DNA of 64,000 bases from an uncultured Alphaproteobacteria bacterium (GTDB lineage Bacteria > Pseudomonadota > Alphaproteobacteria > Rs-D84), in contig CAMORN010000001.1 in the NCBI GenBank assembly GCA_946623825.1, positions 258,246-322,245 of the forward strand, written 5' to 3'. The first letter of the stretch is position 1. The number at the start of each line of letters is the position of its first letter. The position numbers and the translations under genes were made by a program. Shown piece after piece: positions 956 through 44,112 of the stretch. The notes under the pieces are model-generated. The model was not told the DNA's origin and searched no databases. It saw only the letters and a list, made by a program, of their open reading frames with translations.

Positions 956-1141
956 TTAATCCATTTCTTCTGGTTCTGTATTGATATTGATACCAATAAG
1001 TTTGTTTTGCATATCTATGTAATATTGTAGTTGTGTATCTATAGAATCAATCACATCTTGTGGTGGATTGTTAAAGTTCATCAACATGTGTCTAATATTC
1101 TGTAAATTTGTAATTATTCTGACTAATTCATCTCTGTTCAT
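956..1141 (-). CDS. small hypothetical protein (61 aa), first gene of the yegD-like operon
   Basis: Trimmed from track ORF 956..1195. The 1195 start is TTG and lies upstream of the predicted -10. ATG at 1141 follows AAAGG and gives MNRDELVRIITNLQ... The stop is 4 nt before the yegD-like ATG. Confidence 0.45.
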   Translation of the reverse strand: MNRDELVRIITNLQNIRHMLMNFNNPPQDVIDSIDTQLQYYIDMQNKLIGININTEPEEMD

Positions 1142-1186
1142 AGCAAAAACCTTTTTACAAAATATAACTAAAAATGATATTGTATT

Positions 1187-1215
1187 TTTATACAATATTT
1201 ATATTGTCATTGCAA
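1187..1215 (-). promoter_or_regulatory. sigma70-type promoter for the small ORF/yegD-like operon
   Basis: On the reverse strand: TTGCAA (1215-1210), a 17-nt spacer, then TATAAA (1192-1187). Confidence 0.5.
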
Positions 1216-1255
1216 GCGCAAAAGTTGTTATATAAAACCACTTGGAAATATTTAA

Positions 1256-1433
1256 TTCTGGCGCGCCCAGAAGATTTACTCGGGCAAAGCCCTGCGTGGC
1301 AACCGTAACGATTTCACTGCACTTTGTTTGTAAAATCTACTTGTTGTCGAACCATGTTGAGTGTTCTCGTCCGTCTGGGCATAAATTAAAAACCGGTATG
1401 AAACCGGTTTTGAATTTCTGGCGCGCCCAGAAG
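1256..1433 (-). repeat. tRNA-Arg(ACG) 3'-end direct repeats (18 nt, 1256-1273 and 1416-1433) flanking a 142-bp non-coding insert
   Basis: TTCTGGCGCGCCCAGAAG occurs twice, 160 nt apart, and the second copy is the 3' end of the tRNA gene. The interior has a terminator hairpin, an inverted diverged tRNA T-arm/acceptor copy (1356-1382) and an 80-nt module (1274-1353) shared with the tRNA-Ser locus. Confidence 0.9.
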
Positions 1434-1495
1434 GATTCGAACCCTCAACCTTCTGATCCGTAGTCAGATGCTCTATCCAATTGAGCCATGGGCGC
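1419..1495 (-). tRNA. tRNA-Arg (anticodon ACG)
   Basis: The reverse strand folds as GCGCCCA-TG-GCTC-AATTGGATA-GAGC-A-TCTGA-CTACGGA-TCAGA-AGGTT-GAGGG-TTCGAAT-CCTTC-TGGGCGC-G-CCA. It is a 77-nt cloverleaf with an encoded CCA. Confidence 0.93.
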
Positions 1496-1545
1496 AACGA
1501 GGTATATTCTATCTTATTTTATTTCAATTGCAAGTAAAAATACAA

Positions 1546-2187
1546 TTATTTTGTTCTTTGTGCTTCTTTTATATATCTGTACCAATTAAAAGATGGTTGC
1601 TTAAAATAGGCTGTATTAAAATGGCAAGGGCAAACCGATTTATAAAAACTTTTGTCCGAAGATTGTTCTTTTGAATCGCCAATCTCTACTTGATTTCCAT
1701 TACGGACAACATCTCCGGTTTTTGTGCTGAATCTTAAATGATGTGTTGCTAATTTTCTGCAATTTTGGAATTCACAAACCGCTTCAAGACGGTGTTTTTC
1801 ATTGCATACCTTGAAAAGCCAATCTGATGCAGAAAATTTACCACCATTACTGTCAATCAACAAACCATAACAAAATATAGTTTTATCTAAATCTTTTGCG
1901 ATATGGTTTAATATATCTATATCTTGAACCGAGAAAAATTGGATTTCGTCAATCAATATAAATTGAGTGTCTTCTTTTGGAATATAAGATTGTAAATTTT
2001 GCAGGGCCTTGGCTGGTTCTCTTAATCCGATACGAGATACAATTTCAGAATCTGAATCTCTGTTATCAGCAGCAGGTTTTAATACTTCGTATTGTTTGCC
2101 GGAATTTTTTAATTTATAAGCATTTATAATAAGTTCTGTAGATTTAGCAGCGCCCATAACACCGTAAAAGAAATGCAGTTTTGCCAT
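1546..2187 (-). CDS. tdk: thymidine kinase
   Basis: MAKLHFFYGVMGAAKSTELI P-loop, DEIQFF, and a C-terminal Cys cluster. ATG with GAAAGG RBS. Confidence 0.88.
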   Translation of the reverse strand: MAKLHFFYGVMGAAKSTELIINAYKLKNSGKQYEVLKPAADNRDSDSEIVSRIGLREPAKALQNLQSYIPKEDTQFILIDEIQFFSVQDIDILNHIAKDLDKTIFCYGLLIDSNGGKFSASDWLFKVCNEKHRLEAVCEFQNCRKLATHHLRFSTKTGDVVRNGNQVEIGDSKEQSSDKSFYKSVCPCHFNTAYFKQPSFNWYRYIKEAQRTK

Positions 2188-2292
2188 TTTTTCACCTTTC
2201 CTTGTTATATTTCTCTCTTACATCCCTTTTGCCGTATATAAGCAAATTTATATAGGCTTGGTCAAGATGATATTTGTGTTTATTCATAAAAA

Positions 2293-3147
2293 ATGATAAA
2301 ATATTTTCGTATGAGGAAGAGTTTATTCATCTTAGCGTTGTTTTTCACAATGCCTGTTTTTGCAGGCAGTTTTTTGAAAGCACAATCTTTCCCAAAAACC
2401 TTTCAAGATTTATCTTTTTCAGACCGTATGCAATTCAAAATGGATGATTATGAATTGTATCAGCCTGAATATGATGCCAATGGTAATTGTATTTCTGGCT
2501 GTGCATATCCAGGAATAAATATTATACAGGAACACGAAACAAGTAATAATGATACGCAACAGGCTTTGCAACAATCTGAATCTTATCAACAACAACAGCG
2601 ACCATCAACAAATATATCTTTAGATACGCATCAACAACAACAGCACCCATCAACAAATATATCTTTAGATACGCGTGCTATAATAAATGCTGTAAATACA
2701 ACAAACGATGGGCCAGTATGTATAAATCGCAATGTAAATATTCCAGTTGGTCAGGTGGCGCCTTTCGGAAAACCTTTGATTGGAAATCCGCGTATATCTT
2801 CGCCATATGGCCCCAGAACATTGCATGGCAAACAAAGTTATCATGATGGTATAGATTTCGCTGTGCCCATTGGAACCAAGGTTTATTCTCCGGCTGATGC
2901 GACAGTGGTTCGTGTTATAAATGATAATCGTTGTGGCAAAGGATTAAGATTAAAACATAATGATGGCACACAGAGTATATATTGCCATTTAAACAGTCAG
3001 TTTGTAAATAATGGCGACAGGGTGGGGGCTGGTTGTCAAATTGCAGAATCTGGTAATACAGGACATTCAACTGGTCCACATTTGCATTATGGTTTAAGAA
3101 ATTCTGCCGGTAATAAAATAGACCCAACACCGTATATAAATCATTAA
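2293..3147 (+). CDS. secreted M23 (LytM-type) peptidoglycan endopeptidase
   Basis: Signal peptide. HDGIDFAVPIGTKVYSPADATVV and GNTGHSTGPHLHYGLR match the HxxxD and HxH zinc motifs. The N-terminal Q-rich region has a 15-aa duplication. Confidence 0.85.
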   Translation: MIKYFRMRKSLFILALFFTMPVFAGSFLKAQSFPKTFQDLSFSDRMQFKMDDYELYQPEYDANGNCISGCAYPGINIIQEHETSNNDTQQALQQSESYQQQQRPSTNISLDTHQQQQHPSTNISLDTRAIINAVNTTNDGPVCINRNVNIPVGQVAPFGKPLIGNPRISSPYGPRTLHGKQSYHDGIDFAVPIGTKVYSPADATVVRVINDNRCGKGLRLKHNDGTQSIYCHLNSQFVNNGDRVGAGCQIAESGNTGHSTGPHLHYGLRNSAGNKIDPTPYINH

Positions 3148-3151
3148 TTAT

Positions 3152-3514
3152 TTATTTTTTATGAAATTTAACTTCAAAACTGCCATTATTAAGTGGGCGA
3201 AAAGAAGCTATGCGCGGGCTTAATATACTGTCTGTTGCCCATTGTTGAAATTTGATTTTTAATATGCCGCTGGCGCCTGTGATAACCGTTGCGGAACGCG
3301 TGCCAGATGCGGCAACTTGTGCCAGCATATTCCAAGATTCTTCTTCGGTATGATTGTGAAAATCTATTATTGGGTGCGCTGGTAAAATTTCTGGTTTTGG
3401 AACCAGTGTTGATAAATGCAAAGATTTGCGAACTTCTTTTTTTACAGAATCATTTTCTGGTATGAATTCTGTACCAATCATATCCGCAATATCTTTGTCA
3501 TTTAATTTTTTCAT
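3152..3514 (-). CDS. Smr domain protein
   Basis: The C-terminal half (HPIIDFHNHTEEESWNMLAQVAASGTRSATVITGASGILK) resembles the Smr/MutS2 C-terminal domain. The start was moved to ATG 3514 because the track start 3535 is TTG. ATG 3514 lies 1 nt after the alaS stop. Confidence 0.65.
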   Translation of the reverse strand: MKKLNDKDIADMIGTEFIPENDSVKKEVRKSLHLSTLVPKPEILPAHPIIDFHNHTEEESWNMLAQVAASGTRSATVITGASGILKIKFQQWATDSILSPRIASFRPLNNGSFEVKFHKK

Positions 3515-3515
3515 T

Positions 3516-5594
3516 TTATTCAGCCAAATTCCCAACAGACATTGTTATACGGCGAATACCAGAACTGATAGATTTTTCTTTGTTTATACGAGCTTTGATA
3601 ATTTCGCCTGTGTGATAAATGTGTGTTCCACCACATAATTCACAAGAAACATCGCCTGCGGTGATAACACGAACTGTGTCGCCATATTTTTCACCGAACA
3701 AAGCCATTGCGCCGCGTTTCTTGGCGGATTCAATATCCATTTCTTCGTGTGCAACAGACAAATCTTCTTTTATCCATTTGTTAATTAAATCTTCAACTGC
3801 CTGTTTTTCTTCTGCTGTTAAAGAGCGACCAAATGAAAAATCAAAACGAACAGAATCAGGCGCAACCTTAGACCCGCGTTGTTCAACATCGTCATTTAAT
3901 ACCTGACGCAGGGCGGCTTGTAATAAATGTGTCGCGGTGTGTGCGCGTGCAGTCTGTTGACGGACATTTTGATTTATTTCTGGCATAATTTCATCACCAA
4001 CAGAAATTGTTTTGGTTAAAATTCCTTTGTGAATAACAATGTGTCCTACACGATTTGTTTCGGAAATATTCATAACAATTTCATCGTTTTGTTTAAATAC
4101 ACCGCTGTCGCCAACCTGACCACCCTGTGTTCCATAGAATGGTGTGTGGTCCAACGCGATTTCAACTTCATCGTTTTCATTTGCAGATTTTACAAATTCT
4201 TCACCACGCAAAATTGCTAACACTTTCGCAGGTTTTGTTGTTTTTGTTTCATATTTTTCAATATCAATTGTGTCTGGTAAATCGGTTTGAGATTCCCACA
4301 ACAATTTTGTTCCACGTGTATCTGCGCGTGAACGTTCTTTCTGTTCTGCCATACATTTTTCAAAACCAGCAACATCAACAGAAATATTTTTATCACGCAA
4401 AATCATTTGGGTTAAATCAACAGGAAAACCATATGTGTCGAATAATTTGAATGCGATATTGCCAGGCAAGATATTGTTGTTAATATTAGGTATTTCATTT
4501 TCCAATAATTTCATACCATTTTGCAACATATCTGCAAAGGCGTTTTCTTCGTTTTTAATTATTTCAACAACATGTGCTTCTTGTGTCTTTAATTCTGGAT
4601 ATGCATCGCCCATTTCTTTTACGAGAGCAGGGTAAAGAGCAGACAACAAAGCCCCCTTGTGTCCCAGCATTTGTCCATGACGCATCGCGCGTCTTAAAAT
4701 TCTGCGAATTACATAACCACGGTCTGCGTTGCTTGGGATAACACCGTCAGCAATTGCAAAACCAACAGAACGTAAATGGTCTGTGATAACTTTGAAACTT
4801 GTGATGTTTTCAGGTGTTTCTTTTACACCGGTTAAATCAGCAACAGCCTGTTTTAAATTTACAAACAAATCTGTGTCATAGTTATCATGTTTGTTTTGCA
4901 TAATAGATGCAAATCTTTCAAGACCAGCACCAGTATCAACATTTTGTTTTGGTAATGGACTTAAAACACCATTTGCATCACGGTCATATTGCATAAATAC
5001 ATCATTCCAGATTTCAACATAACGGCCACCGTCTTCGTTTGGTGTTCCTGGTAATCCGCCCGGCATATCTGGACCGAAATCATAGTGCATTTCTGTACAT
5101 GGACCACATGGGCCGGTTTCGCCCGCAGACCACCAATTGTCTTTATCTAATCTGATTGCGTCTTTGCCAGTTATTTTTTTCCATATTGCGGTCGCTTCAT
5201 CATCGCTGATGTGTGTCGTTACAACAATTCTTTCTGGGTCCAGACCGAATACCTTGGTCAATAATTCCCATGACATTTCGATTGCGCCTTCTTTGAAATA
5301 ATCGCCGAAAGACCAATTTCCCAACATTTCAAAGAAAGTATGATGACGGCCATCAAAACCGACATCTTCTAAATCATTATGTTTGCCACCTGCGCGGATA
5401 CATTTTTGAACATCTGCAACGCGTGGTGCAAATGCAGGTTCTGTTCCTTGTAAAATACCTTTCCATGGCACCATACCAGCAACCGTGAATAACAGTGTTG
5501 GATCATTTGGTATCAAAGATGCGGACGGAACAATTGTGTGTCCCTTTGATTTAAAATAATCTAAAAATAATTTTCTTATTTCATTATAAGTCAT
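3516..5594 (-). CDS. alaS: alanine--tRNA ligase, short form (692 aa, no C-Ala domain)
   Basis: MTYNEIRKLFLDYFKSKGHTIVPSASLIPNDPTLLFTVAGM..., the class II core, and editing-domain motifs TATHLLQAAL and CGGTHIYHTGEI. The ORF ends right after the editing domain. Confidence 0.93.
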   Translation of the reverse strand: MTYNEIRKLFLDYFKSKGHTIVPSASLIPNDPTLLFTVAGMVPWKGILQGTEPAFAPRVADVQKCIRAGGKHNDLEDVGFDGRHHTFFEMLGNWSFGDYFKEGAIEMSWELLTKVFGLDPERIVVTTHISDDEATAIWKKITGKDAIRLDKDNWWSAGETGPCGPCTEMHYDFGPDMPGGLPGTPNEDGGRYVEIWNDVFMQYDRDANGVLSPLPKQNVDTGAGLERFASIMQNKHDNYDTDLFVNLKQAVADLTGVKETPENITSFKVITDHLRSVGFAIADGVIPSNADRGYVIRRILRRAMRHGQMLGHKGALLSALYPALVKEMGDAYPELKTQEAHVVEIIKNEENAFADMLQNGMKLLENEIPNINNNILPGNIAFKLFDTYGFPVDLTQMILRDKNISVDVAGFEKCMAEQKERSRADTRGTKLLWESQTDLPDTIDIEKYETKTTKPAKVLAILRGEEFVKSANENDEVEIALDHTPFYGTQGGQVGDSGVFKQNDEIVMNISETNRVGHIVIHKGILTKTISVGDEIMPEINQNVRQQTARAHTATHLLQAALRQVLNDDVEQRGSKVAPDSVRFDFSFGRSLTAEEKQAVEDLINKWIKEDLSVAHEEMDIESAKKRGAMALFGEKYGDTVRVITAGDVSCELCGGTHIYHTGEIIKARINKEKSISSGIRRITMSVGNLAE

Positions 5595-15147: not shown

Positions 15148-15375
15148 AAAACACCGCACGGGGCGGTGTTTTCTTATTGTGGCGGAGACGAAGTATTCCC
15201 TTGGCATAAAATGCCTGCGGGGCAACCGTAACGATTACACGGCACATGGTTTGTGTAATCTACTTGTTGTCGAACCTAGCAACTGCGTTGCGAATGGTTC
15301 AAATCTGCCTTGCGTTTGTCGACAATAAAAAAACACCGCACGGGGCGGTGTTTTCTTATTGTGGCGGAGACGAAG
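15148..15375 (-). repeat. 46-nt direct repeats (tRNA-Ser 3' end plus its terminator; 15148-15193 and 15330-15375) flanking a 136-bp non-coding insert
   Basis: AAAACACCGCACGGGGCGGTGTTTTCTTATTGTGGCGGAGACGAAG occurs twice, 182 nt apart. The interior (15194-15276) shares 55/62 identical positions with the tRNA-Arg insert over its core. Confidence 0.9.
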
Positions 15376-38227: not shown

Positions 38228-38304
38228 GCGAGCGTAGCTCAGTTGGCTAGAGCGCAACCTTGCCAAGGTTGAGGTCGAGGGTTCGAGCCCCTTTGCTCGC
38301 ACCA
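38228..38304 (+). tRNA. tRNA-Gly (anticodon GCC)
   Basis: GCGAGCG-TA-GCTC-AGTTGGCTA-GAGC-G-CAACC-TTGCCAA-GGTTG-AGGTC-GAGGG-TTCGAGC-CCCTT-TGCTCGC-A-CCA. Confidence 0.93.
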
Positions 38305-38635
38305 GAATTTATAAACACCCGAAAGGGTGTTTTTTATGTTTAAGCAAAGGGGCGAGAACCCGCAGGGTTGCGAGGCGAGGCAACGGCAGTTGCCGAAGTA
38401 CTTTGCTCGCACCAGAATTTATAAACACCCGAAAGGGTGTTTTTTATGTTTAAGCAAAGGGGCGAGAACCCGCAGGGTTGCGAGGCGAGGCAACGGCAGT
38501 TGCCGAAGTACTTTGCTCGCACCAGAATTTATAAACACCCGAAAGGGTGTTTTTTTATGTTTAAGCAAAGGGGCGAGAACCCGGAGGGTTGCGAGGCGAG
38601 GCAACGACAGTTGCCGAAGTACTTTGCTCGCACCA
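38291..38635 (+). repeat. tandem array of three 110/110/111-bp units, each ending in a copy of the tRNA-Gly 3' end
   Basis: CTTTGCTCGCACCA starts at 38291 (in the tRNA), 38401, 38511 and 38622. Units 1 and 2 are identical and unit 3 differs at 3 positions. Each unit is a terminator hairpin (AAACACCCGAAAGGGTGTTTTTT), then GCAAAGGGGCGAGAACCC (an inverted tRNA T-arm/acceptor copy), then the GGCAAC-GGCA-GTTGCC hairpin, then the tRNA 3' end. Confidence 0.95.
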
Positions 38636-38770
38636 AAGTTTTTTATTAGAAATCCGGGCATTTGCACCGGATTTTTTGTTTTTCACTCGAATTATTGCCC
38701 ACAAACAAAAATCCTGGAAAATCCAGTATTTTTTTGCTTTGGCACACTTGAAAATAAAGGATAAAAACCT

Positions 38771-38971
38771 ATGTTTAAAAAGTGTAAAGCAAACTGTCAA
38801 GCAAATGACAACCTTTATATAAGAAATGATGTGTTTTATTATATGGTCGAATTACCGCGTCAAGATGGTAAAAGACGATATTTTATAAAATCATTACACA
38901 CAAAAGATTATTACGAAGCATTGGAAAGGCATTTTATCCAAATATGGTCACATAAAAACAGCACCTTATAG
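38771..38971 (+). pseudogene. N-terminal fragment (66 codons) of a tyrosine integrase
   Basis: ...NLYIRNDVFYYMVELPRQDGKRRYFIKSLHTKDYYEALER... fits the N-terminal pattern of tRNA-targeting integrases (LY-R-x3-YY ... GKR-x4-SL-T-D-x2-A). No catalytic domain follows. It lies 136 nt after the last tRNA-Gly 3'-end copy. Confidence 0.6.
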
Positions 38972-39082
38972 TGCCATTTATCATAAAACATACATAAACA
39001 CGCCAAATTCAAGCCGTGGACAACGAAAATAAAATCGGCAATAAAACTATAAATCAGAAAGGCAGAACAGTTTATATATTTT

Positions 39083-40090
39083 TTACTTACGTTTGTTTAG
39101 AACATAAAAAATACTTCCAATAAATGTTGTAAATAATGTTACAAAAAACAAATATCTTATAACATGATAAACACTGAAACCCAAAATATCTCTCGCATAC
39201 CAATATTCTATTTGTTCACGTTTATTATCATTTTTGAAATCAATATATTTTGGTTCTACTTTTTTTACACCTTTTTTATCAAAACTTAAACTTATGTATC
39301 CATATTTCTTTATATTTTCATCTCTAATAACTTGACCACTGGATGGGGTTGTATAAAAAGGAACACCTGCAAAATTGTTTTTTTTAAAATAATGAACATG
39401 TCCGAACAACATCACATCAACTTTATATTTTTTTAAAACATTTTCTAACTTATTTTTTGTTAAAACATCTAATTTATCATTACTAATACTTTTTGTAATA
39501 ATTGGTGGAATATGAGAATATATAACACAATTATTAAACATAGGTCTAATTTTTTTCAATGTATCCTCTAACCATTCAAACTGTTCGTCATCTATATTTC
39601 TTGAAGAATTATCCAAAGCTATAAATAAAACATTTCCATAAGAAAACCAATAATACGTATTGCCCATAACATTACGATATGGACGCACATCATATTTATG
39701 TTTTTTAAAAACATCATGATTTCCAGGGACCGCATATAACGGCATGTTTCCAACATGTTTTTTAATTTCGTCTAACAACCAATATTGTCCCAAACTGCTG
39801 GTATGTGTAATGAAATCACCAAGATATAACATAAAACTATAATTTTCATCTGATTTTCTTATATCATCTATAACTTGCTCTAACACATGATTTTCTGCCC
39901 CCGTATCAGACAATACTGCAACAGAAAACTCATTTTGATTTTTAGCAAAAAAATGTGAGGCAGGAGACTTTAAGTAATAGTTTGATTTTGAAAATCTATC
40001 CATTGAACAAACATGAAATACAGATATAAAAAATATACTCAGCACACCTAATATACTTATAACAAAGAAAAATTTATAAACATATTTCAT
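39083..40090 (-). CDS. membrane-anchored calcineurin-like metallophosphoesterase
   Basis: VLSDTG, LYLGDF, VPGNHD, IYSHIPP and LFGHVHY motifs, with N- and C-terminal TM segments. By eye it lies in an AT-richer stretch between tRNA-Gly 3'-end copies. Confidence 0.8.
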   Translation of the reverse strand: MKYVYKFFFVISILGVLSIFFISVFHVCSMDRFSKSNYYLKSPASHFFAKNQNEFSVAVLSDTGAENHVLEQVIDDIRKSDENYSFMLYLGDFITHTSSLGQYWLLDEIKKHVGNMPLYAVPGNHDVFKKHKYDVRPYRNVMGNTYYWFSYGNVLFIALDNSSRNIDDEQFEWLEDTLKKIRPMFNNCVIYSHIPPIITKSISNDKLDVLTKNKLENVLKKYKVDVMLFGHVHYFKKNNFAGVPFYTTPSSGQVIRDENIKKYGYISLSFDKKGVKKVEPKYIDFKNDNKREQIEYWYARDILGFSVYHVIRYLFFVTLFTTFIGSIFYVLNKRK

Positions 40091-40456
40091 AATAGTTCCC
40101 TACATCATATCCATAGATAATTTATTCTTGGTGTGCTATGGTATCACAAAAAAAACGTAATACAAATATATTTTTTTAATGTATAGAAAAATTTTTTACT
40201 ATACGTGATATCGGCTAAGATATATTCTTTGTCAGAATTCCTAACATCAGAATGAATTGAAACAAAACATTAAATAAAAGTCAATGTTATTTTATGAATA
40301 TAAAATACAGTCATTGTAGGTAAAAAAATCGTGTGCTTTTTACAAAAAATACGATAAATTCAAAAAAGTGTCAAGCAAAGTGTCAGGCAAACTGATAAAA
40401 ATGGCTGAATTTCGGGTTAAAACGGACTAAAAAATGCCAAAAAAAGGCGTGATTGT

Positions 40457-40591
40457 GGTTCCCTTTGCTCGCACCAGAAATTATAAACACCCGAAAGGGT
40501 TTTTTTTTTATTGTTGTATTAGCAAAGGGGCGAGAACCCGCAGGGTTGCGAGGCGAGACAACGCAGTTGCCGAAGTACTTTGCTCGCACCA
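40457..40591 (+). repeat. distal copy of the tRNA-Gly-associated unit bracketed by two tRNA 3'-end copies
   Basis: GGTTCCCTTTGCTCGCACCA (40457-40476) is the T-loop/acceptor with a 4-nt deletion. It is followed by the terminator hairpin, GCAAAGGGGCGAGAACCCGCAGGGTTGCGAGGCGAGACAACGCAGTTGCCGAAGTA, and CTTTGCTCGCACCA (40578-40591). Confidence 0.9.
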
Positions 40592-40737
40592 GAAATTATA
40601 AACACCCGAAAGGGTGTTTTTTTTATTTGGTTAAACATGAATAAGTAAAATATTTATAAAATAAATATTGACAAATATATTTATTTGTATATTATATGTA
40701 TAAATAAGTTTTATTTTGTGATAAAGGTTGTAAAAAA

Positions 40738-42027
40738 ATGAAAAGTAAAGATTTAAAGAGTTTTATTGGTGCGTCTGCTTTTATTGGCAGCATGTTAATT
40801 TCTTGTGGTCGTGTTGGTTTACCAGTATCTTCTAAAACCGAAGATAAAACAATTTTACCCAAAAAAGAACAAAAATACGATATTGAAAACGATCAAAGAA
40901 TGCGTCAAAAATATCAAAAAATGTATGCGGATTCTATTCGTTTTGCAAATGGTTATGACAGTATTTGTAACAAAAGTAATATGTTATGGAGAAAAACGGC
41001 AGAGCTTGAATCTCGTGCAGATTCTTTAGCTATGGAAAATTCTTTAGGGGCTGTAATGCAAAGAGAAGTTGAAAGTGCTGCTAATAAAATTCTTAAAGAT
41101 TTTTTAAATAGCGTTTCTGGTGTTTTAAGAATGTATCAAATATCTTTACAAGACTACGTAACAGAAGATAATGATTTTTTATGGTGTTTTAATACTAATG
41201 TACAAAAAGATAATTATGATGGTACGGATTATGTTTTAAAACAACCTTTGATGTATTTTGGTGTTAATACTTGTGGATTTTATGATTCTGAACATGAATT
41301 TAATGAATTGGTCGATATTATAAATCAAATTATTTATGAATCAGATCATGCTAAATCACATAAAAAAGAAATTATGAATAAAATTAATGCTTTGATTAAA
41401 AAGGTAAAGCCAAAATTGATTGCTAGCAGAAAATCTATAGAACGTAAATATTCTGATTATTATGTAGTAATTGACGGACAAGATGCTGCTTTTATATCTT
41501 ATGGAGCAGATGATTGGAATTATGGTTATAGTGATACAGAATATCCAGAAAGACAGGCTGTGGTTAAAGTTACAACTTTAAGTGTATATGGAGAAGATTT
41601 ACCAATAAAATTTTTTGAAGATAAAAAAGCAAAATATGAATTGGTTAATCTAGGAAATAACAGATGGCAAGTAAAAAAGATTTCAAATATAGGTGTGATT
41701 GAAAATACAGCAATATTTACAGCTAAGGACGAAAAGTCTGTTAAAGAATATTATGCGGGGATTGATGCACGTAATTATTCAGAATTTCGTTTTGATCCGG
41801 GACATGATTCTGGTGGAGTACATATTGAAGTAGAGGAAGGTGTAGTTATAAAAAAAGCAAAACAACAATGGTGGCCATCAAGAAATGTTATAAATCAAAT
41901 TGATTCATTAGAAGAGGAATCTATAAAATATGCAAGTCAAGCAGCAAAATTAGAAGAGCAAAAGAAAATAATAAATCAATATGCAGATTCTGTTGCGCGT
42001 GCAATGGTTAACCAATATTGTAAATAG
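40738..42027 (+). CDS. hypothetical lipoprotein (429 aa)
   Basis: The signal ends in LISC (lipobox). A TTGACA-N16-TATTAT promoter lies at about 40669-40696 and a terminator at 42038-42066. Confidence 0.6.
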   Translation: MKSKDLKSFIGASAFIGSMLISCGRVGLPVSSKTEDKTILPKKEQKYDIENDQRMRQKYQKMYADSIRFANGYDSICNKSNMLWRKTAELESRADSLAMENSLGAVMQREVESAANKILKDFLNSVSGVLRMYQISLQDYVTEDNDFLWCFNTNVQKDNYDGTDYVLKQPLMYFGVNTCGFYDSEHEFNELVDIINQIIYESDHAKSHKKEIMNKINALIKKVKPKLIASRKSIERKYSDYYVVIDGQDAAFISYGADDWNYGYSDTEYPERQAVVKVTTLSVYGEDLPIKFFEDKKAKYELVNLGNNRWQVKKISNIGVIENTAIFTAKDEKSVKEYYAGIDARNYSEFRFDPGHDSGGVHIEVEEGVVIKKAKQQWWPSRNVINQIDSLEEESIKYASQAAKLEEQKKIINQYADSVARAMVNQYCK

Positions 42028-42074
42028 TTGTTTAAACAAAAACCGCCATTAATGGCGGTTTTTTGATTTTGTTG

Positions 42075-42118
42075 GCAAAGGGGGGAGTTGCGAGGCGAGG
42101 CAACACAGTTGCCGAAGT
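42075..42118 (+). repeat. partial third copy of the tRNA-Gly-associated unit (no tRNA 3'-end copy)
   Basis: GCAAAGGGGGGAGTTGCGAGGCGAGGCAACACAGTTGCCGAAGT. It keeps the hairpin GGCAAC-ACA-GTTGCC but lacks CGAGAACCCGCA and the CTTTGCTCGCACCA end. Confidence 0.8.
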
Positions 42119-42119
42119 G

Positions 42120-42392
42120 TTATTTCTTTTTTCTGTGTAATTTAAGAATCATGTATAATACGACTGAACTGAATGATAATGTGATGGTGTCGGAAATAAC
42201 CATCTGGATAGATTTCAGGTATATTCCATACAATATCCAAAATACCAAACCGGTACAATATATCAAATACATTGTCAGAGACAATCCAGAAACATCTTTT
42301 GTTTTGATAGATTTTATTGCTTGTGGCAAGAAAGCAATTGTTGTGCATGTGCAACATATACAGCCGATTATTTCACCGATTATTGGATTCAT
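42120..42392 (-). CDS. SemiSWEET (PQ-loop) family transporter
   Basis: 90 aa with three TM helices and AFLPQAIKSIKTKDVSGLSL (PQ motif). Confidence 0.75.
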   Translation of the reverse strand: MNPIIGEIIGCICCTCTTIAFLPQAIKSIKTKDVSGLSLTMYLIYCTGLVFWILYGIYLKSIQMVISDTITLSFSSVVLYMILKLHRKKK

Positions 42393-42645
42393 GATTTTAT
42401 TCCTTTCATTATTCGCAAGCGCATTATATAAATCTGCAAAATTAAAATCAAGTATTCATCAGATTTTTATTGAAAATTTGCAAGATATATGTTATAAATT
42501 ATGTCTGTAAAGAAATCACAACGGGTGGTTAAACAATGAAATTAAATATTAAACGTTTTTTTAATTAAGGGTGCGACCATCAAACAATTTGACGGACGCA
42601 CTGGACTGTGTCCGTTTTTTTATGCTAAAACAAAGGAAAAATAAA

Positions 42646-44112
42646 ATGGCAGAAAACACAAATATATCTACGAACGAATTAACAGCACGTATGCAAAAGG
42701 TTGAAAATATTAAACAACGTGATGGTGTTGTTTGGAAAGATAAATTTGACCGTTCTCATAAAATATGTGAAGCACGTGAATTGGCAGATGAAACCCCTGT
42801 AAAATTGGCGGGTCGTGTCACAGCACTTCGTTGGTTGGGTAAATTGATGTTTGGCCGTATTTATGATATCGAAGGTGAAATTCAATTTTCAATGTCCCGT
42901 GAAGAATTAGGCGAAGAAAATTATAAATTTATGAAATCCAATGTTGATATGGGTGATTTTATCGGTATTACTGGAACTTTGTATCATACAACTGCTGGTG
43001 AATTGACTGTCCGTGTTTCTGGTTATGAAATCTTGGCCAAGGCACTGCGCCCATTACCAGAAAAATTCCATGGCCTTACAGATATGGAAACACGTTATCG
43101 TCAAAGATATTTGGATATTATTTCTAATGAAGAAGCACGCAATGCTTTGCTTGGTCGTTTCAAAATGACACACAATTTGCGTGAATTTATGAACAGAAAT
43201 GGTTTCCTTGAAATAGAAACACCAATTATGCAAAATATTGCATCTGGTGCGGCTGCAAAACCATTTACAACACACCATAATGCGTTGGATGCAGATTTTC
43301 AATTGCGTATTTCCCCAGAATTATTCTTGAAACAGGCAATTGGTGCGGGTTTTGACCGTGTTTATGAAGTTGCAAAAGATTTCCGTAACGAAGGTATGGA
43401 CGCAATGCACCTGCAAGAATTTACAATGATTGAATGGTATGCTGCATATTGGGATTATAAACGTAACATAGATTTCACATGGGAAATGGTGCAAGAATTA
43501 ATTCAAAAGGCACGCGGAACATTGCAAATTGAATACCAAGGTACAATGTTAGATTTCTCTAAATATGAAATGATAGATTACACTGCCAGAATGAATGAAT
43601 TGTTTGGTTGTGATATTCTTGAATTTAATGATGTAGATAAATTGCGCAAACAATTATATGACAATGGTATGTTCCCAGTTGGTGAATTGGACGATTTGAA
43701 ATCGATACCTACATTGGTTGATTATGTTTATAAACGCAAAATCCGTAACCAAATCGTTCAACCTACATTTTTGTATAACTATCCAACATATATGGTGCCA
43801 TTGGCGCGTCATAACGACAATGACGACCGCAGATTAGATATGTATCAATTGTTGGTTGCTGGTGGTGAATTATGCAAGGGTTATTCAGAACTTGTAAATC
43901 CAATGCAACAATTGGCTGCATTTGAAGAACAGGCAAAAAATATTGCTGGTGGCGAAGAAGAAGCTTTTAACCCAGATAACGATTTCGTTCGTGCTATGGA
44001 ACATGGTTTTCCACCAATTTCAGGTGTGGGTATGGGTATTGACCGTTTAGCTATGATTGTGTTCAATCAACCAACCGCACGTGATGTTATCTTGTTCCCA
44101 ATAATGAAATAA
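42646..44112 (+). CDS. lysS: lysine--tRNA ligase, class II
   Basis: OB-fold N-domain, RYRQRYLDII, FLEIETPIMQ (motif 2 region), and GMGIDRLAMI (motif 3). The start was trimmed to ATG 42646 (AAAGGAAAA RBS). Confidence 0.93.
   Translation: MAENTNISTNELTARMQKVENIKQRDGVVWKDKFDRSHKICEARELADETPVKLAGRVTALRWLGKLMFGRIYDIEGEIQFSMSREELGEENYKFMKSNVDMGDFIGITGTLYHTTAGELTVRVSGYEILAKALRPLPEKFHGLTDMETRYRQRYLDIISNEEARNALLGRFKMTHNLREFMNRNGFLEIETPIMQNIASGAAAKPFTTHHNALDADFQLRISPELFLKQAIGAGFDRVYEVAKDFRNEGMDAMHLQEFTMIEWYAAYWDYKRNIDFTWEMVQELIQKARGTLQIEYQGTMLDFSKYEMIDYTARMNELFGCDILEFNDVDKLRKQLYDNGMFPVGELDDLKSIPTLVDYVYKRKIRNQIVQPTFLYNYPTYMVPLARHNDNDDRRLDMYQLLVAGGELCKGYSELVNPMQQLAAFEEQAKNIAGGEEEAFNPDNDFVRAMEHGFPPISGVGMGIDRLAMIVFNQPTARDVILFPIMK

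Follow-up and report, generated by a model that had tools for sequence, protein, structure and literature searches.

Organisation of the tRNA-Gly(GCC) locus

The DNA analysed here is a stretch of 64,000 nucleotides (hereafter, the window) from an uncultured alphaproteobacterium (GenBank assembly GCA_946623825.1, contig CAMORN010000001.1, positions 258,246 to 322,245 of the forward strand), in which a tRNA-Gly(GCC) gene is followed by repeated copies of a short unit and by two segments of low GC content. We find that the folded portion of this unit, which we refer to as the module, is most probably a resident structure maintained by selection and not the end of an integrated island, and that the first of the two segments is almost certainly the remnant of such an island.

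The tRNA gene lies on the plus strand at 38228-38304 (ARAGORN; Rfam tRNA, 65.9 bits), and its last 14 nt (38291-38304) constitute a core, CTTTGCTCGCACCA, with start positions at 38291, 38401, 38511, 38622, 40463 and 40578. Reading in the 3' direction from the gene, we find three units, a 1.8-kb segment (segment 1), a fourth unit, a 1.5-kb segment (segment 2) and a truncated fifth unit, all of the units being on the plus strand. Each complete unit has three parts, namely an intrinsic terminator, a module starting with GCAAAGGGGCGAG, and the last 14 nt of the tRNA. The first three are arranged head to tail in a tandem array (38291-38635; period 110, 3.1 copies, 98% matches), with unit lengths of 110-111 nt. 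Unit 1 (38305-38414) contains a terminator at 38313-38332, a module at 38344-38406 and a core at 38401-38414, and its module is folded by three pairings: P1 (GCAAAG/CTTTGC), P2 (AACCC-GCA-GGGTT, 38357-38369) and the hairpin P3 (38379-38394). Unit 2 (38415-38524) is 100% identical to unit 1, while unit 3 (38525-38635, 111 nt) is 97% identical and provides, in its core at 38622-38635, the attL of the island remnant. Unit 4 (40477-40591; module 40522-40583, core 40578-40591) is 89% identical to unit 1 and has one A.C mismatch in P3, and the fifth unit (42075-42118) is a short form without P2 from which the tRNA end is missing. The hairpin loops of the five copies are, in order, GGCA, GGCA, GACA, GCA and ACA. 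The coordinates and loop sequences given in a preliminary description of the locus, as well as the single mismatch of the 40.5-kb copy, were all confirmed. An 18-nt piece of the unit, GTTGCGAGGCGAGGCAAC, has 5 matches against 0.03 expected, and in its own assembly (933 kb, 16 contigs) the unit is confined to the tRNA-Gly locus.

Two backbone genes lie beyond the fifth unit: a PQ-loop (SemiSWEET-like) gene on the minus strand (42120-42392; Pfam PQ-loop, E 2.9e-13), which also follows the units in the closest relative, genome G001, and the conserved downstream gene lysS (42571-44112, plus strand). In G001 the truncated fifth unit has as its orthologue the complete second (short) unit, relative to which it has lost about 20 nt comprising the 3' strand of P1 and the tail.

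Because core and terminator recur at the end of each module as they do at the end of the tRNA, yielding repeats of ~50 nt, unequal homologous recombination can amplify the units, and the identity of units 1 and 2 suggests that one such event was recent. From the arrangement of these sequences we infer that units can be gained and lost by unequal recombination between the ~50-nt repeats, and that each unit, carrying a copy of the tRNA core, would constitute a spare attachment core.

Structure, conservation and inheritance of the module

The module measures 65-76 nt and is sited after the tRNA terminator. At its start the T-arm and acceptor 3' strand of the tRNA are copied in mirror orientation, and at its end the last 14 nt are copied directly; consequently the two ends pair as P1, which encloses an optional hairpin, P2, as well as the hairpin P3. 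The latter is represented by 65 distinct sequences, with stems that include GGCAAC, GCCGGC, GGTGGC, GGGGAT, GGTTAT, GCCGTGC and GGCAGATT, and these comprise 371 Watson-Crick pairs, 7 G.T pairs, 1 A.C pair and 2 other mismatches. In our alignment of units (A1), 95.8% of P3 cells are paired, compared to 28-58% in slid controls, and two-sided changes affect 119 cells, compared to 29.8 +/- 6.5 in shuffles. The 5' block GCAAAGGGGCGAG is near-invariant although it lies outside the search pattern, and the adjacent terminators diverge freely. P1 shows three A-to-G changes opposite T, each of which retains a G.U pair on the plus strand. Given these changes, together with a ratio of G.T to A.C pairs of 7 to 1 in P3, the folded strand is the tRNA's own strand.

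RNAalifold offers an alternative outer stem, in which GCGAGGC pairs with GTACTTTGC, and every column of this stem is invariant. We also considered a tRNA-like acceptor mimic, in which the tail TCGCACCA pairs with the 5' flank or with internal GCGAG repeats, pseudoknot included, and rejected it on the grounds that 5' flank and tail do not covary and that many single-copy units have altered tails (e.g. GAGCACCA, GAAGCCCA). A coding reading of the units was likewise rejected, given that insertions and deletions in P3 shift the frame between species. Searches of Rfam, performed permissively at the locus (E up to 10) and at gathering thresholds over the whole window, returned only tRNAs and the tmRNA.

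Using a covariance model, we detected the unit in 98 of 257 genomes of the genus (73 of the 181 high-quality ones), invariably at one locus and in 1 to 5 copies. All matches fall within Candidatus Enterousia and gut or rumen Alphaproteobacteria metagenome-assembled genomes, the Candidatus Enterousia lineage being one with genomes under 1 Mb (PMC12306168), and a BLAST-type search with the 72-nt unit gave no convincing match in 16 sampled genomes from other families of the order. When P3 classes are placed on the tree of a conserved upstream gene, 20 class changes are required, whereas shuffled labels require 32.6 on average and never fewer than 29, and it is on this basis that we consider the unit to be inherited with its locus.

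In most species the locus contains no island, the unit simply coming after the tRNA and the terminator of the latter, and it resembles neither arm of the islands that we found (in genomes G006 and G090, discussed below). The preliminary description proposed successive integrations followed by decay, with the units as the persistent part, and left it undecided whether they are island ends, independent passengers or selected structures. The first of these options is not borne out, since the units lie outside attR, are unlike the island arms, occur in many species that have no island, and are inherited with the locus; of the three, selected structures fits best. We conclude that the module is, in all likelihood, a resident structure under selection.

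Segment 1 and its island relatives

Segment 1 (38636-40456, plus strand) comprises a P' arm, an integrase stump, one cargo gene and a P arm. The P' arm contains the island's own terminator hairpin (38652-38672) and is followed by the N-terminal stump of an integrase (38771-38971, plus strand; 66 codons, with homology over 53), which has a weak match to DUF6538. A tandem repeat, AAAGTGT(A/C)AAGC, is found at 38777-38805 on the P' side and, as a direct repeat on the same strand, at 40363-40391 in the P arm; judged from their sequence and placement, these repeats are likely to represent arm-type integrase sites on both arms. The remaining cargo is a metallophosphoesterase gene (39083-40090, minus strand; 335 amino acids, hydrophobic at both ends; Pfam Metallophos, E 2.6e-19), beyond which lies a non-coding stretch of 366 nt with 27% GC (40091-40456). 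The segment is closed by an attR at 40457-40476, GGTTCCCTTTGCTCGCACCA, that consists of a tRNA fragment reaching into the T-loop and interrupted by a 5-nt gap, followed by the core at 40463-40476.

Intact islands of the same family are present in relatives. That of G090 is ~15 kb long and lies at tRNA-Gly(CCC), with its integrase gene just 3' of the tRNA; ahead of this gene lie the small terminator hairpin and leader that are also found after the unit 3 core in the window. Residues 1-53 of the stump share 91% identity with the N-terminus of the G090 integrase frame (a 535-amino-acid open frame; 515 amino acids from ATG), and the stump sits at the same distance from the core as does the G090 integrase. 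Near its right end the G090 island has AAAAGTGCCAAGCAAAGTGTCAGGC, then a tRNA fragment, then the core, the counterpart of this repeat in the window being that at 40363-40391. In G006 an island of 7.2 kb with a 522-amino-acid integrase directly follows tRNA-Gly(GCC). The P' hairpin, the start of the integrase and the arm repeats are common to segment 1, G090 and G006, with repeats near attR in both of the latter. Moreover, the left end of segment 1 recurs in G090, G202, L093 and L121, and right ends styled like its attR occur in L058, L102, L117/L137 and G090.

Segment 1 therefore has the hallmarks of a tRNA-integrated island: direct repeats of the tRNA 3' end at 38622-38635 and 40463-40476, an integrase gene at the tRNA-proximal end (as a 53-codon stump only), two ends that are both common to the intact relatives in G090 and G006, atypical composition, and absence from the same site in G001. 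An intact integrase of this island family is absent from the window's own assembly. We have little doubt that segment 1 is a decayed tyrosine-integrase island whose integrase was specific for tRNA-Gly. The order of elements in G006 and G090 is tRNA, island, attR core, terminator and module, and therefore the module, being outside attR, was in the chromosome before the island arrived.

Of what had been described for the locus, these results uphold its status as an integration hotspot, the decay of segment 1 (the ends of which match intact islands in relatives), and the gene content of the two segments, i.e. the integrase stump, the metallophosphoesterase, a lipoprotein and the AT-rich 366-nt stretch. 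One detail requires correction: the T-loop fragment GGTTCCCTTTGC was said to carry a 4-nt deletion, whereas 5 nt are missing relative to the window's own tRNA, GGTTCGAGCCCCTTTGC, a 4-nt gap being found instead in the island ends of relatives. Intact relatives of the integrase, for which a search had been suggested, exist in G090 and G006, and the unit sequence is unlike their island arms.

Segment 2 and the closest relative

Segment 2 (40592-42074, plus strand) consists of a terminator (40600-40619), a promoter-like site (40668-40695), a lipoprotein open reading frame (40738-42027) and a second terminator (42038-42063). The encoded protein has 429 amino acids and a lipobox (LISC), and has no match in Pfam. 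Both segments are compositional outliers, with GC contents of 27.6% (segment 1) and 28.4% (segment 2) compared to 35.1% for the genome, which correspond to percentiles of 0.6 and 1.0 among 1.5-kb genome windows. GC content at third codon positions is similarly low, at 0.17 for the segment 1 reading frame and 0.15 for that of segment 2, versus 0.31 for tgt and 0.28 for lysS. Homologues of the two genes are rare, with those of the metallophosphoesterase occurring in 14 of 150 other genomes of the genus (at most 48% identity, at unrelated locations) and those of the lipoprotein in 8 of 150 (at most 31% identity).

In G001, whose LysS is 98% identical, the interval from the tRNA to lysS measures ~0.8 kb, compared to 4.3 kb in the window, and contains one long unit, a 95-nt spacer element, one short unit and the PQ-loop gene; segments 1 and 2 are both missing. 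The interval comparison and the GC and codon profiles proposed in the preliminary description both single out the two segments, and its test of horizontal acquisition was passed, in that the metallophosphoesterase and lipoprotein genes both lack synteny and conservation beside tRNA-Gly. For segment 2, composition, rarity and absence from the close relative hint at acquisition, but we found no integrase or att signature within it, and so the proposal that it too was acquired stands weakly.

Unit-bracketed inserts elsewhere in the genus

Integrase-less island remnants with units on both sides occur in G234, G202 and G051, and this shared layout, together with the GIY-YIG cassettes described below, indicates that unit-delimited islets are a habit of the genus. 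Either islands enter the cores of units, or units are added at the tRNA afterwards.

Several unit-flanked, integrase-less inserts carry large single genes: L200 (G234) at 1400-4561, encoding 1053 amino acids; L201 (G202) at 1084-3872, encoding 620 plus 307 amino acids; and L203 (G157) at 1110-3599, encoding 829 amino acids. Defence or restriction cargo is a possible identity for these genes. A smaller cassette, found in L093 (5017-5366) and L107 (5568-5917), consists of a 79-amino-acid GIY-YIG (UPF0213-like) gene with a hairpin-rich leader of ~110 nt. It starts exactly after the ACCA of a tRNA or unit and ends at a T-run before the next unit, the copies from the two species are 97% identical, and the gene is absent from the window's own genome.

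A wider family of modules behind other tRNA genes

The unit is not alone in its genome, where structured modules lie behind about a third of tRNA genes. Among 43 tRNA genes, 12 have a copy of their own last 10-12 nt within ~250 nt downstream, and tRNA-Tyr has an additional module with a truncated tail copy. Ten of the 12 modules open with the reverse-complement of the T-arm and acceptor 3' strand of their own tRNA, which ranks first of the 43 in this comparison, and the direct tail copy mostly begins inside the T-loop. Family modules are located in the window at 1270-1418 (Arg-ACG) and 15180-15361 (Ser-GGA), and elsewhere at C1:35841 (Glu-CTC), C1:127028 (Ser-TGA), C1:186706 (His, two modules), C2:174568 (Lys-CTT), C3:38185 (Val-CAC), C3:76682 (Arg-TCT), C5:9475 (Glu-TTC) and C2:89882 (Tyr, truncated). 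In addition, tRNA-Gly(CCC) has a module in G090 and none in the window's own genome.

The large members of the family measure 100-170 nt and have in common GGACGAGAACC, a P2 helix (GAACC/GGTTC) whose tip varies, and a long hairpin at the centre, followed by a last hairpin and a GAGTAAAT-like sequence; the family also shares TTCGACAACAAGTAG. Read by eye from the sequences, the central hairpin covaries between paralogues in both its upper stem (GATTACAC/GTGTAATC versus GATTTCGG/CCGAAATC) and its lower stem (GTA/TAC versus GCA/TGC). The central motif TTCGACWAYRAGTAR is present in 129 of the 201 genomes covered from the order; copy numbers per genome range from 0 to 8, a reversed-pattern control gave ~0, and the motif is essentially confined to the genus. 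The Gly(GCC) unit corresponds to the outer parts of a family module without the central domain, and on sequence grounds we therefore class it as a miniature member of a Candidatus Enterousia-specific module family that is represented behind at least 10 other tRNA genes here.

Two further kinds of sequence accompany these modules. The spacer element of ~95 nt, AAATTTGTATGCAAGAACAAAC...GCGCGCAGGCATTTTGCCAAGCGAA, lies between units in L204 (G001, at about 345-455) and also follows the unit in L043, L045, L055, L083, L088 and L105; it is similar to the 3' half of a large module (the central-loop motif plus the last hairpin), without the tRNA end. Behind Gly(TCC) at C2:90088 and Leu(TAG) at C5:7876, there is a different downstream block of ~100 nt sharing GTGAATCG.GTATCCTTGC...TTGCTAATAACGCAAC. 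These blocks end in a T-loop-gapped tRNA fragment and core, as do island attR ends, and are probably scars of another island family.

Other observations on the locus

The discriminator of bacterial tRNA-Gly is usually U73. All three tRNA-Gly genes of this genome carry an A discriminator (..CGCACCA), namely GCC (window 38301), TCC (C2:90088-90162) and CCC (C1:353906-353979), possibly a consequence of which type of GlyRS, or DTD, the lineage has; the role of the discriminator is discussed in PMC6097841. Upstream of lysS, a leader (window 42537-42640) contains a 10-codon open reading frame (MKLNIKRFFN), then GGGTGCGACCATC...GACGGACGCAC, and then a hairpin with a T-run. It is also found in L204, L205 and L208, and is kept in relatives even where it directly follows tRNA-Gly, making an attenuator or leader role for lysS a possibility.

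Interpretation of the tRNA-Gly tail

For the tRNA-Gly tail as a whole, we lean slightly towards a layered account that combines the module, its amplification, acquired DNA and a role as RNA. The oldest layer would be a vertically inherited, structured, non-coding module after the tRNA terminator, in which the sequence of P3 drifts while its pairing is kept. This module would then have been amplified through unequal homologous recombination, with its copies serving as spare attachment cores. The third layer would consist of acquired DNA, with a tRNA-Gly-specific integrase island having entered between the unit 3 core and the attR core and decayed to 1.8 kb, and a second low-GC gene having come to lie between unit 4 and the ancestral short unit. 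As for function, read-through from the tRNA promoter may yield the module as a folded RNA of the plus strand, with a 3' end matured like that of the tRNA itself; this RNA would then be an analogue of the Escherichia coli tyrT repeats and rtT RNA. Strand bias, long-term conservation in genomes that are ~90% coding, and the five species in which no terminator stands between tRNA and unit all suggest a role as RNA. The particular mechanism, in which the module acts as a read-through tRNA-trailer RNA, is drawn by analogy, and we put it forward tentatively, at somewhat less than an even chance.

Several observations weigh against this account. An intrinsic terminator lies between tRNA and unit in 59 of 66 species and no promoter-like site precedes the units on either strand, so that any module RNA depends on read-through. 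A role as RNA also leaves unexplained why the tail of each module's own tRNA is copied in both orientations. Furthermore, part of the invariance that GCGAGGCGAG and GAAGTACTTTGC show in A1 is imposed by the pattern used for searching. The unit is often lost and is dispensable, in that only 38-40% of the genomes of the genus carry one and the copy in G003 is visibly decayed. Finally, the unit-bracketed, integrase-less remnants of three other species could mean that units insert at the tRNA core.

In a rival explanation, the units, like their larger relatives, are miniature insertion elements that lack genes and are specific for tRNA tails. A [terminator-module-core] cassette would enter the tRNA core by means of a recombinase acting in trans, so that the array and the unit-bracketed islets would be a record of one insertion after another, with the newest copy standing next to the tRNA. 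Such elements would account for a family found behind many tRNAs with each copy tailored to its own tRNA, for a genus-confined central motif that varies from 0 to 8 copies per genome, for the tRNA-Gly(CCC) module present in G090 but not in the window's own genome, for the integrase-less remnants that have a unit on either side in the window, G234, G202 and G051, and for the GIY-YIG cassette bracketed by core and unit. However, no candidate enzyme tracks the modules, and many unit-bearing genomes have just two tyrosine recombinases, with open frames of ~300 amino acids. The Y1 transposase (PF01797) is absent from the window's own genome and from 60 of 61 genomes of the genus, leaving no basis for an IS200/IS605 or repetitive extragenic palindrome (REP)/RAYT assignment, and reverse transcriptase is absent from the own genome and several other unit-bearing genomes. 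The Gly unit, moreover, keeps to a single locus in each genome and follows the phylogeny of the neighbouring gene, and the repeat often runs through the terminator to ~50 nt, which is more in keeping with homologous duplication than with a short att core. Viral contigs yielded no copy; a phage origin was itself considered and rejected, with the unit pattern giving no match there and the large-module motif giving 4, all in an unrelated sequence and without module context. We regard such insertion elements as rather unlikely. A broader proposal, which we rate as more doubtful again, is that the mini-units represent a hitherto undescribed class of tRNA-tail modules that encode no protein. In these, the tRNA 3' end, copied once in mirror and once in direct orientation, would fold round a conserved core, and the module would be capable of self-directed insertion or have a tRNA-specific RNA function. 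Insertion might then proceed through a folded single strand or a guide, with a recombinase in trans, and the RNA might act, for example, as a masked antisense to the 3' third of the tRNA.

A related possibility is that the module works as folded single-stranded DNA that rebuilds the T-arm/acceptor duplex of the tRNA gene as a recombinase site. P1 and P2 do re-create this duplex from T-stem to acceptor, conserved ends and a variable tip are also seen in attC sites, the asymmetry of wobble pairs fits single-stranded DNA as well as RNA, and the flanking terminators speak against any requirement for transcription. Yet a general PF00589 census identified no cognate recombinase, there is no sign that the Gly unit has moved, and the attP cores of the island integrases look different, such that we consider this explanation improbable. 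Least probable of all, to our minds, is that the units are neutral att scars, consisting of an arm and a core left by an ancient island after deletion of its interior. The layout of tRNA, terminator, X, core and terminator is that expected from attL, deletion and attR, and Gly(TCC) and Leu(TAG) do carry 100-nt scars with T-loop-gapped tRNA ends in the style of islands. However, neutral scars would not be expected to show near-invariant flanks and a fully compensated hairpin across ~100 species in which the adjacent terminators have diverged, and alignments already suggest that the unit accumulates substitutions more slowly than the intergenic DNA around it. In addition, the unit is unlike either arm of known islands, and the mirror copy of the tRNA tail is foreign to island arms.

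The hotspot itself is known biology, with islands accumulating and decaying at a tRNA gene. What is unusual is a folded, conserved element of 65-76 nt that persists in genomes of less than 1 Mb that are ~90% coding. If it is an RNA, it would represent a new tRNA-trailer RNA family in an uncultured gut lineage, and if it is mobile, a gene-less element. In either case, the additional attachment cores would influence the sites at which foreign genes settle in these reduced genomes.

Comparison with known systems

Tandem islands at tRNA or tmRNA genes are known from the site-specific accretion, and the cis-mobilizable elements (CIMEs), of ICESt1-type elements (PMC5704250), and tandem inserts at an RNA gene from the ssrA islands of Dehalococcoides (PMC3146451). 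As in those systems, copies of an RNA-gene 3' end delimit successive inserts downstream of a single RNA gene, inserts without an integrase retain attL and attR, and a later element can use the distal repeat. Segment 1 fits this picture in full. The mini-units fit in part: each lies between two cores and so has att flanks, but derivation by internal deletion of an island finds no support, given that the units resemble neither arm of the islands found and lie outside the attR of intact islands. Unlike a CIME, moreover, the mini-unit is structured and vertically inherited, and it has a mirror copy of the tRNA tail that is absent from att scars.

A second comparison is with integron attC sites and the attP(+) of CTX phage, which are recombination sites used as folded single strands. 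Shared features include conserved ends that pair, a variable structured middle in which pairing is kept without sequence, strand bias, and cassette-like arrays with a short common core. In contrast, no integron integrase or demonstrated recombinase partner accompanies the present units (as far as the general PF00589 census extends), and no movement of them has been observed. Furthermore, the paired ends of attC are R''/R' (RYYYAAC/GTTRRRY), an R-box or L-box, whereas those of the present module are GCAAAG/CTTTGC and copy the tRNA gene.

The third system is the tyrT operon of E. coli, in which 178-bp units, as reportedly described by Egan and Landy in 1978, are repeated 3.14 times, each with the 3' end of tRNA-Tyr, and from which rtT RNA is said to be processed (work attributed to Bosl and Kersten, 1991). 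The present unit has no sequence match to these repeats and no match to Rfam RtT (E up to 10), and differs in being shorter, separated by terminators, folded into a covarying hairpin and part of a family that spans multiple tRNAs. What the two have in common is a series of tandem units after a tRNA gene, on the strand of the tRNA, each ending in the tRNA 3' terminal sequence. In tyrT a small RNA is released from the read-through transcript, and for the present units we propose by analogy that the same may occur. Judged by layout, then, the tyrT 178-bp repeat with its rtT RNA is the nearest analogue of the unit.

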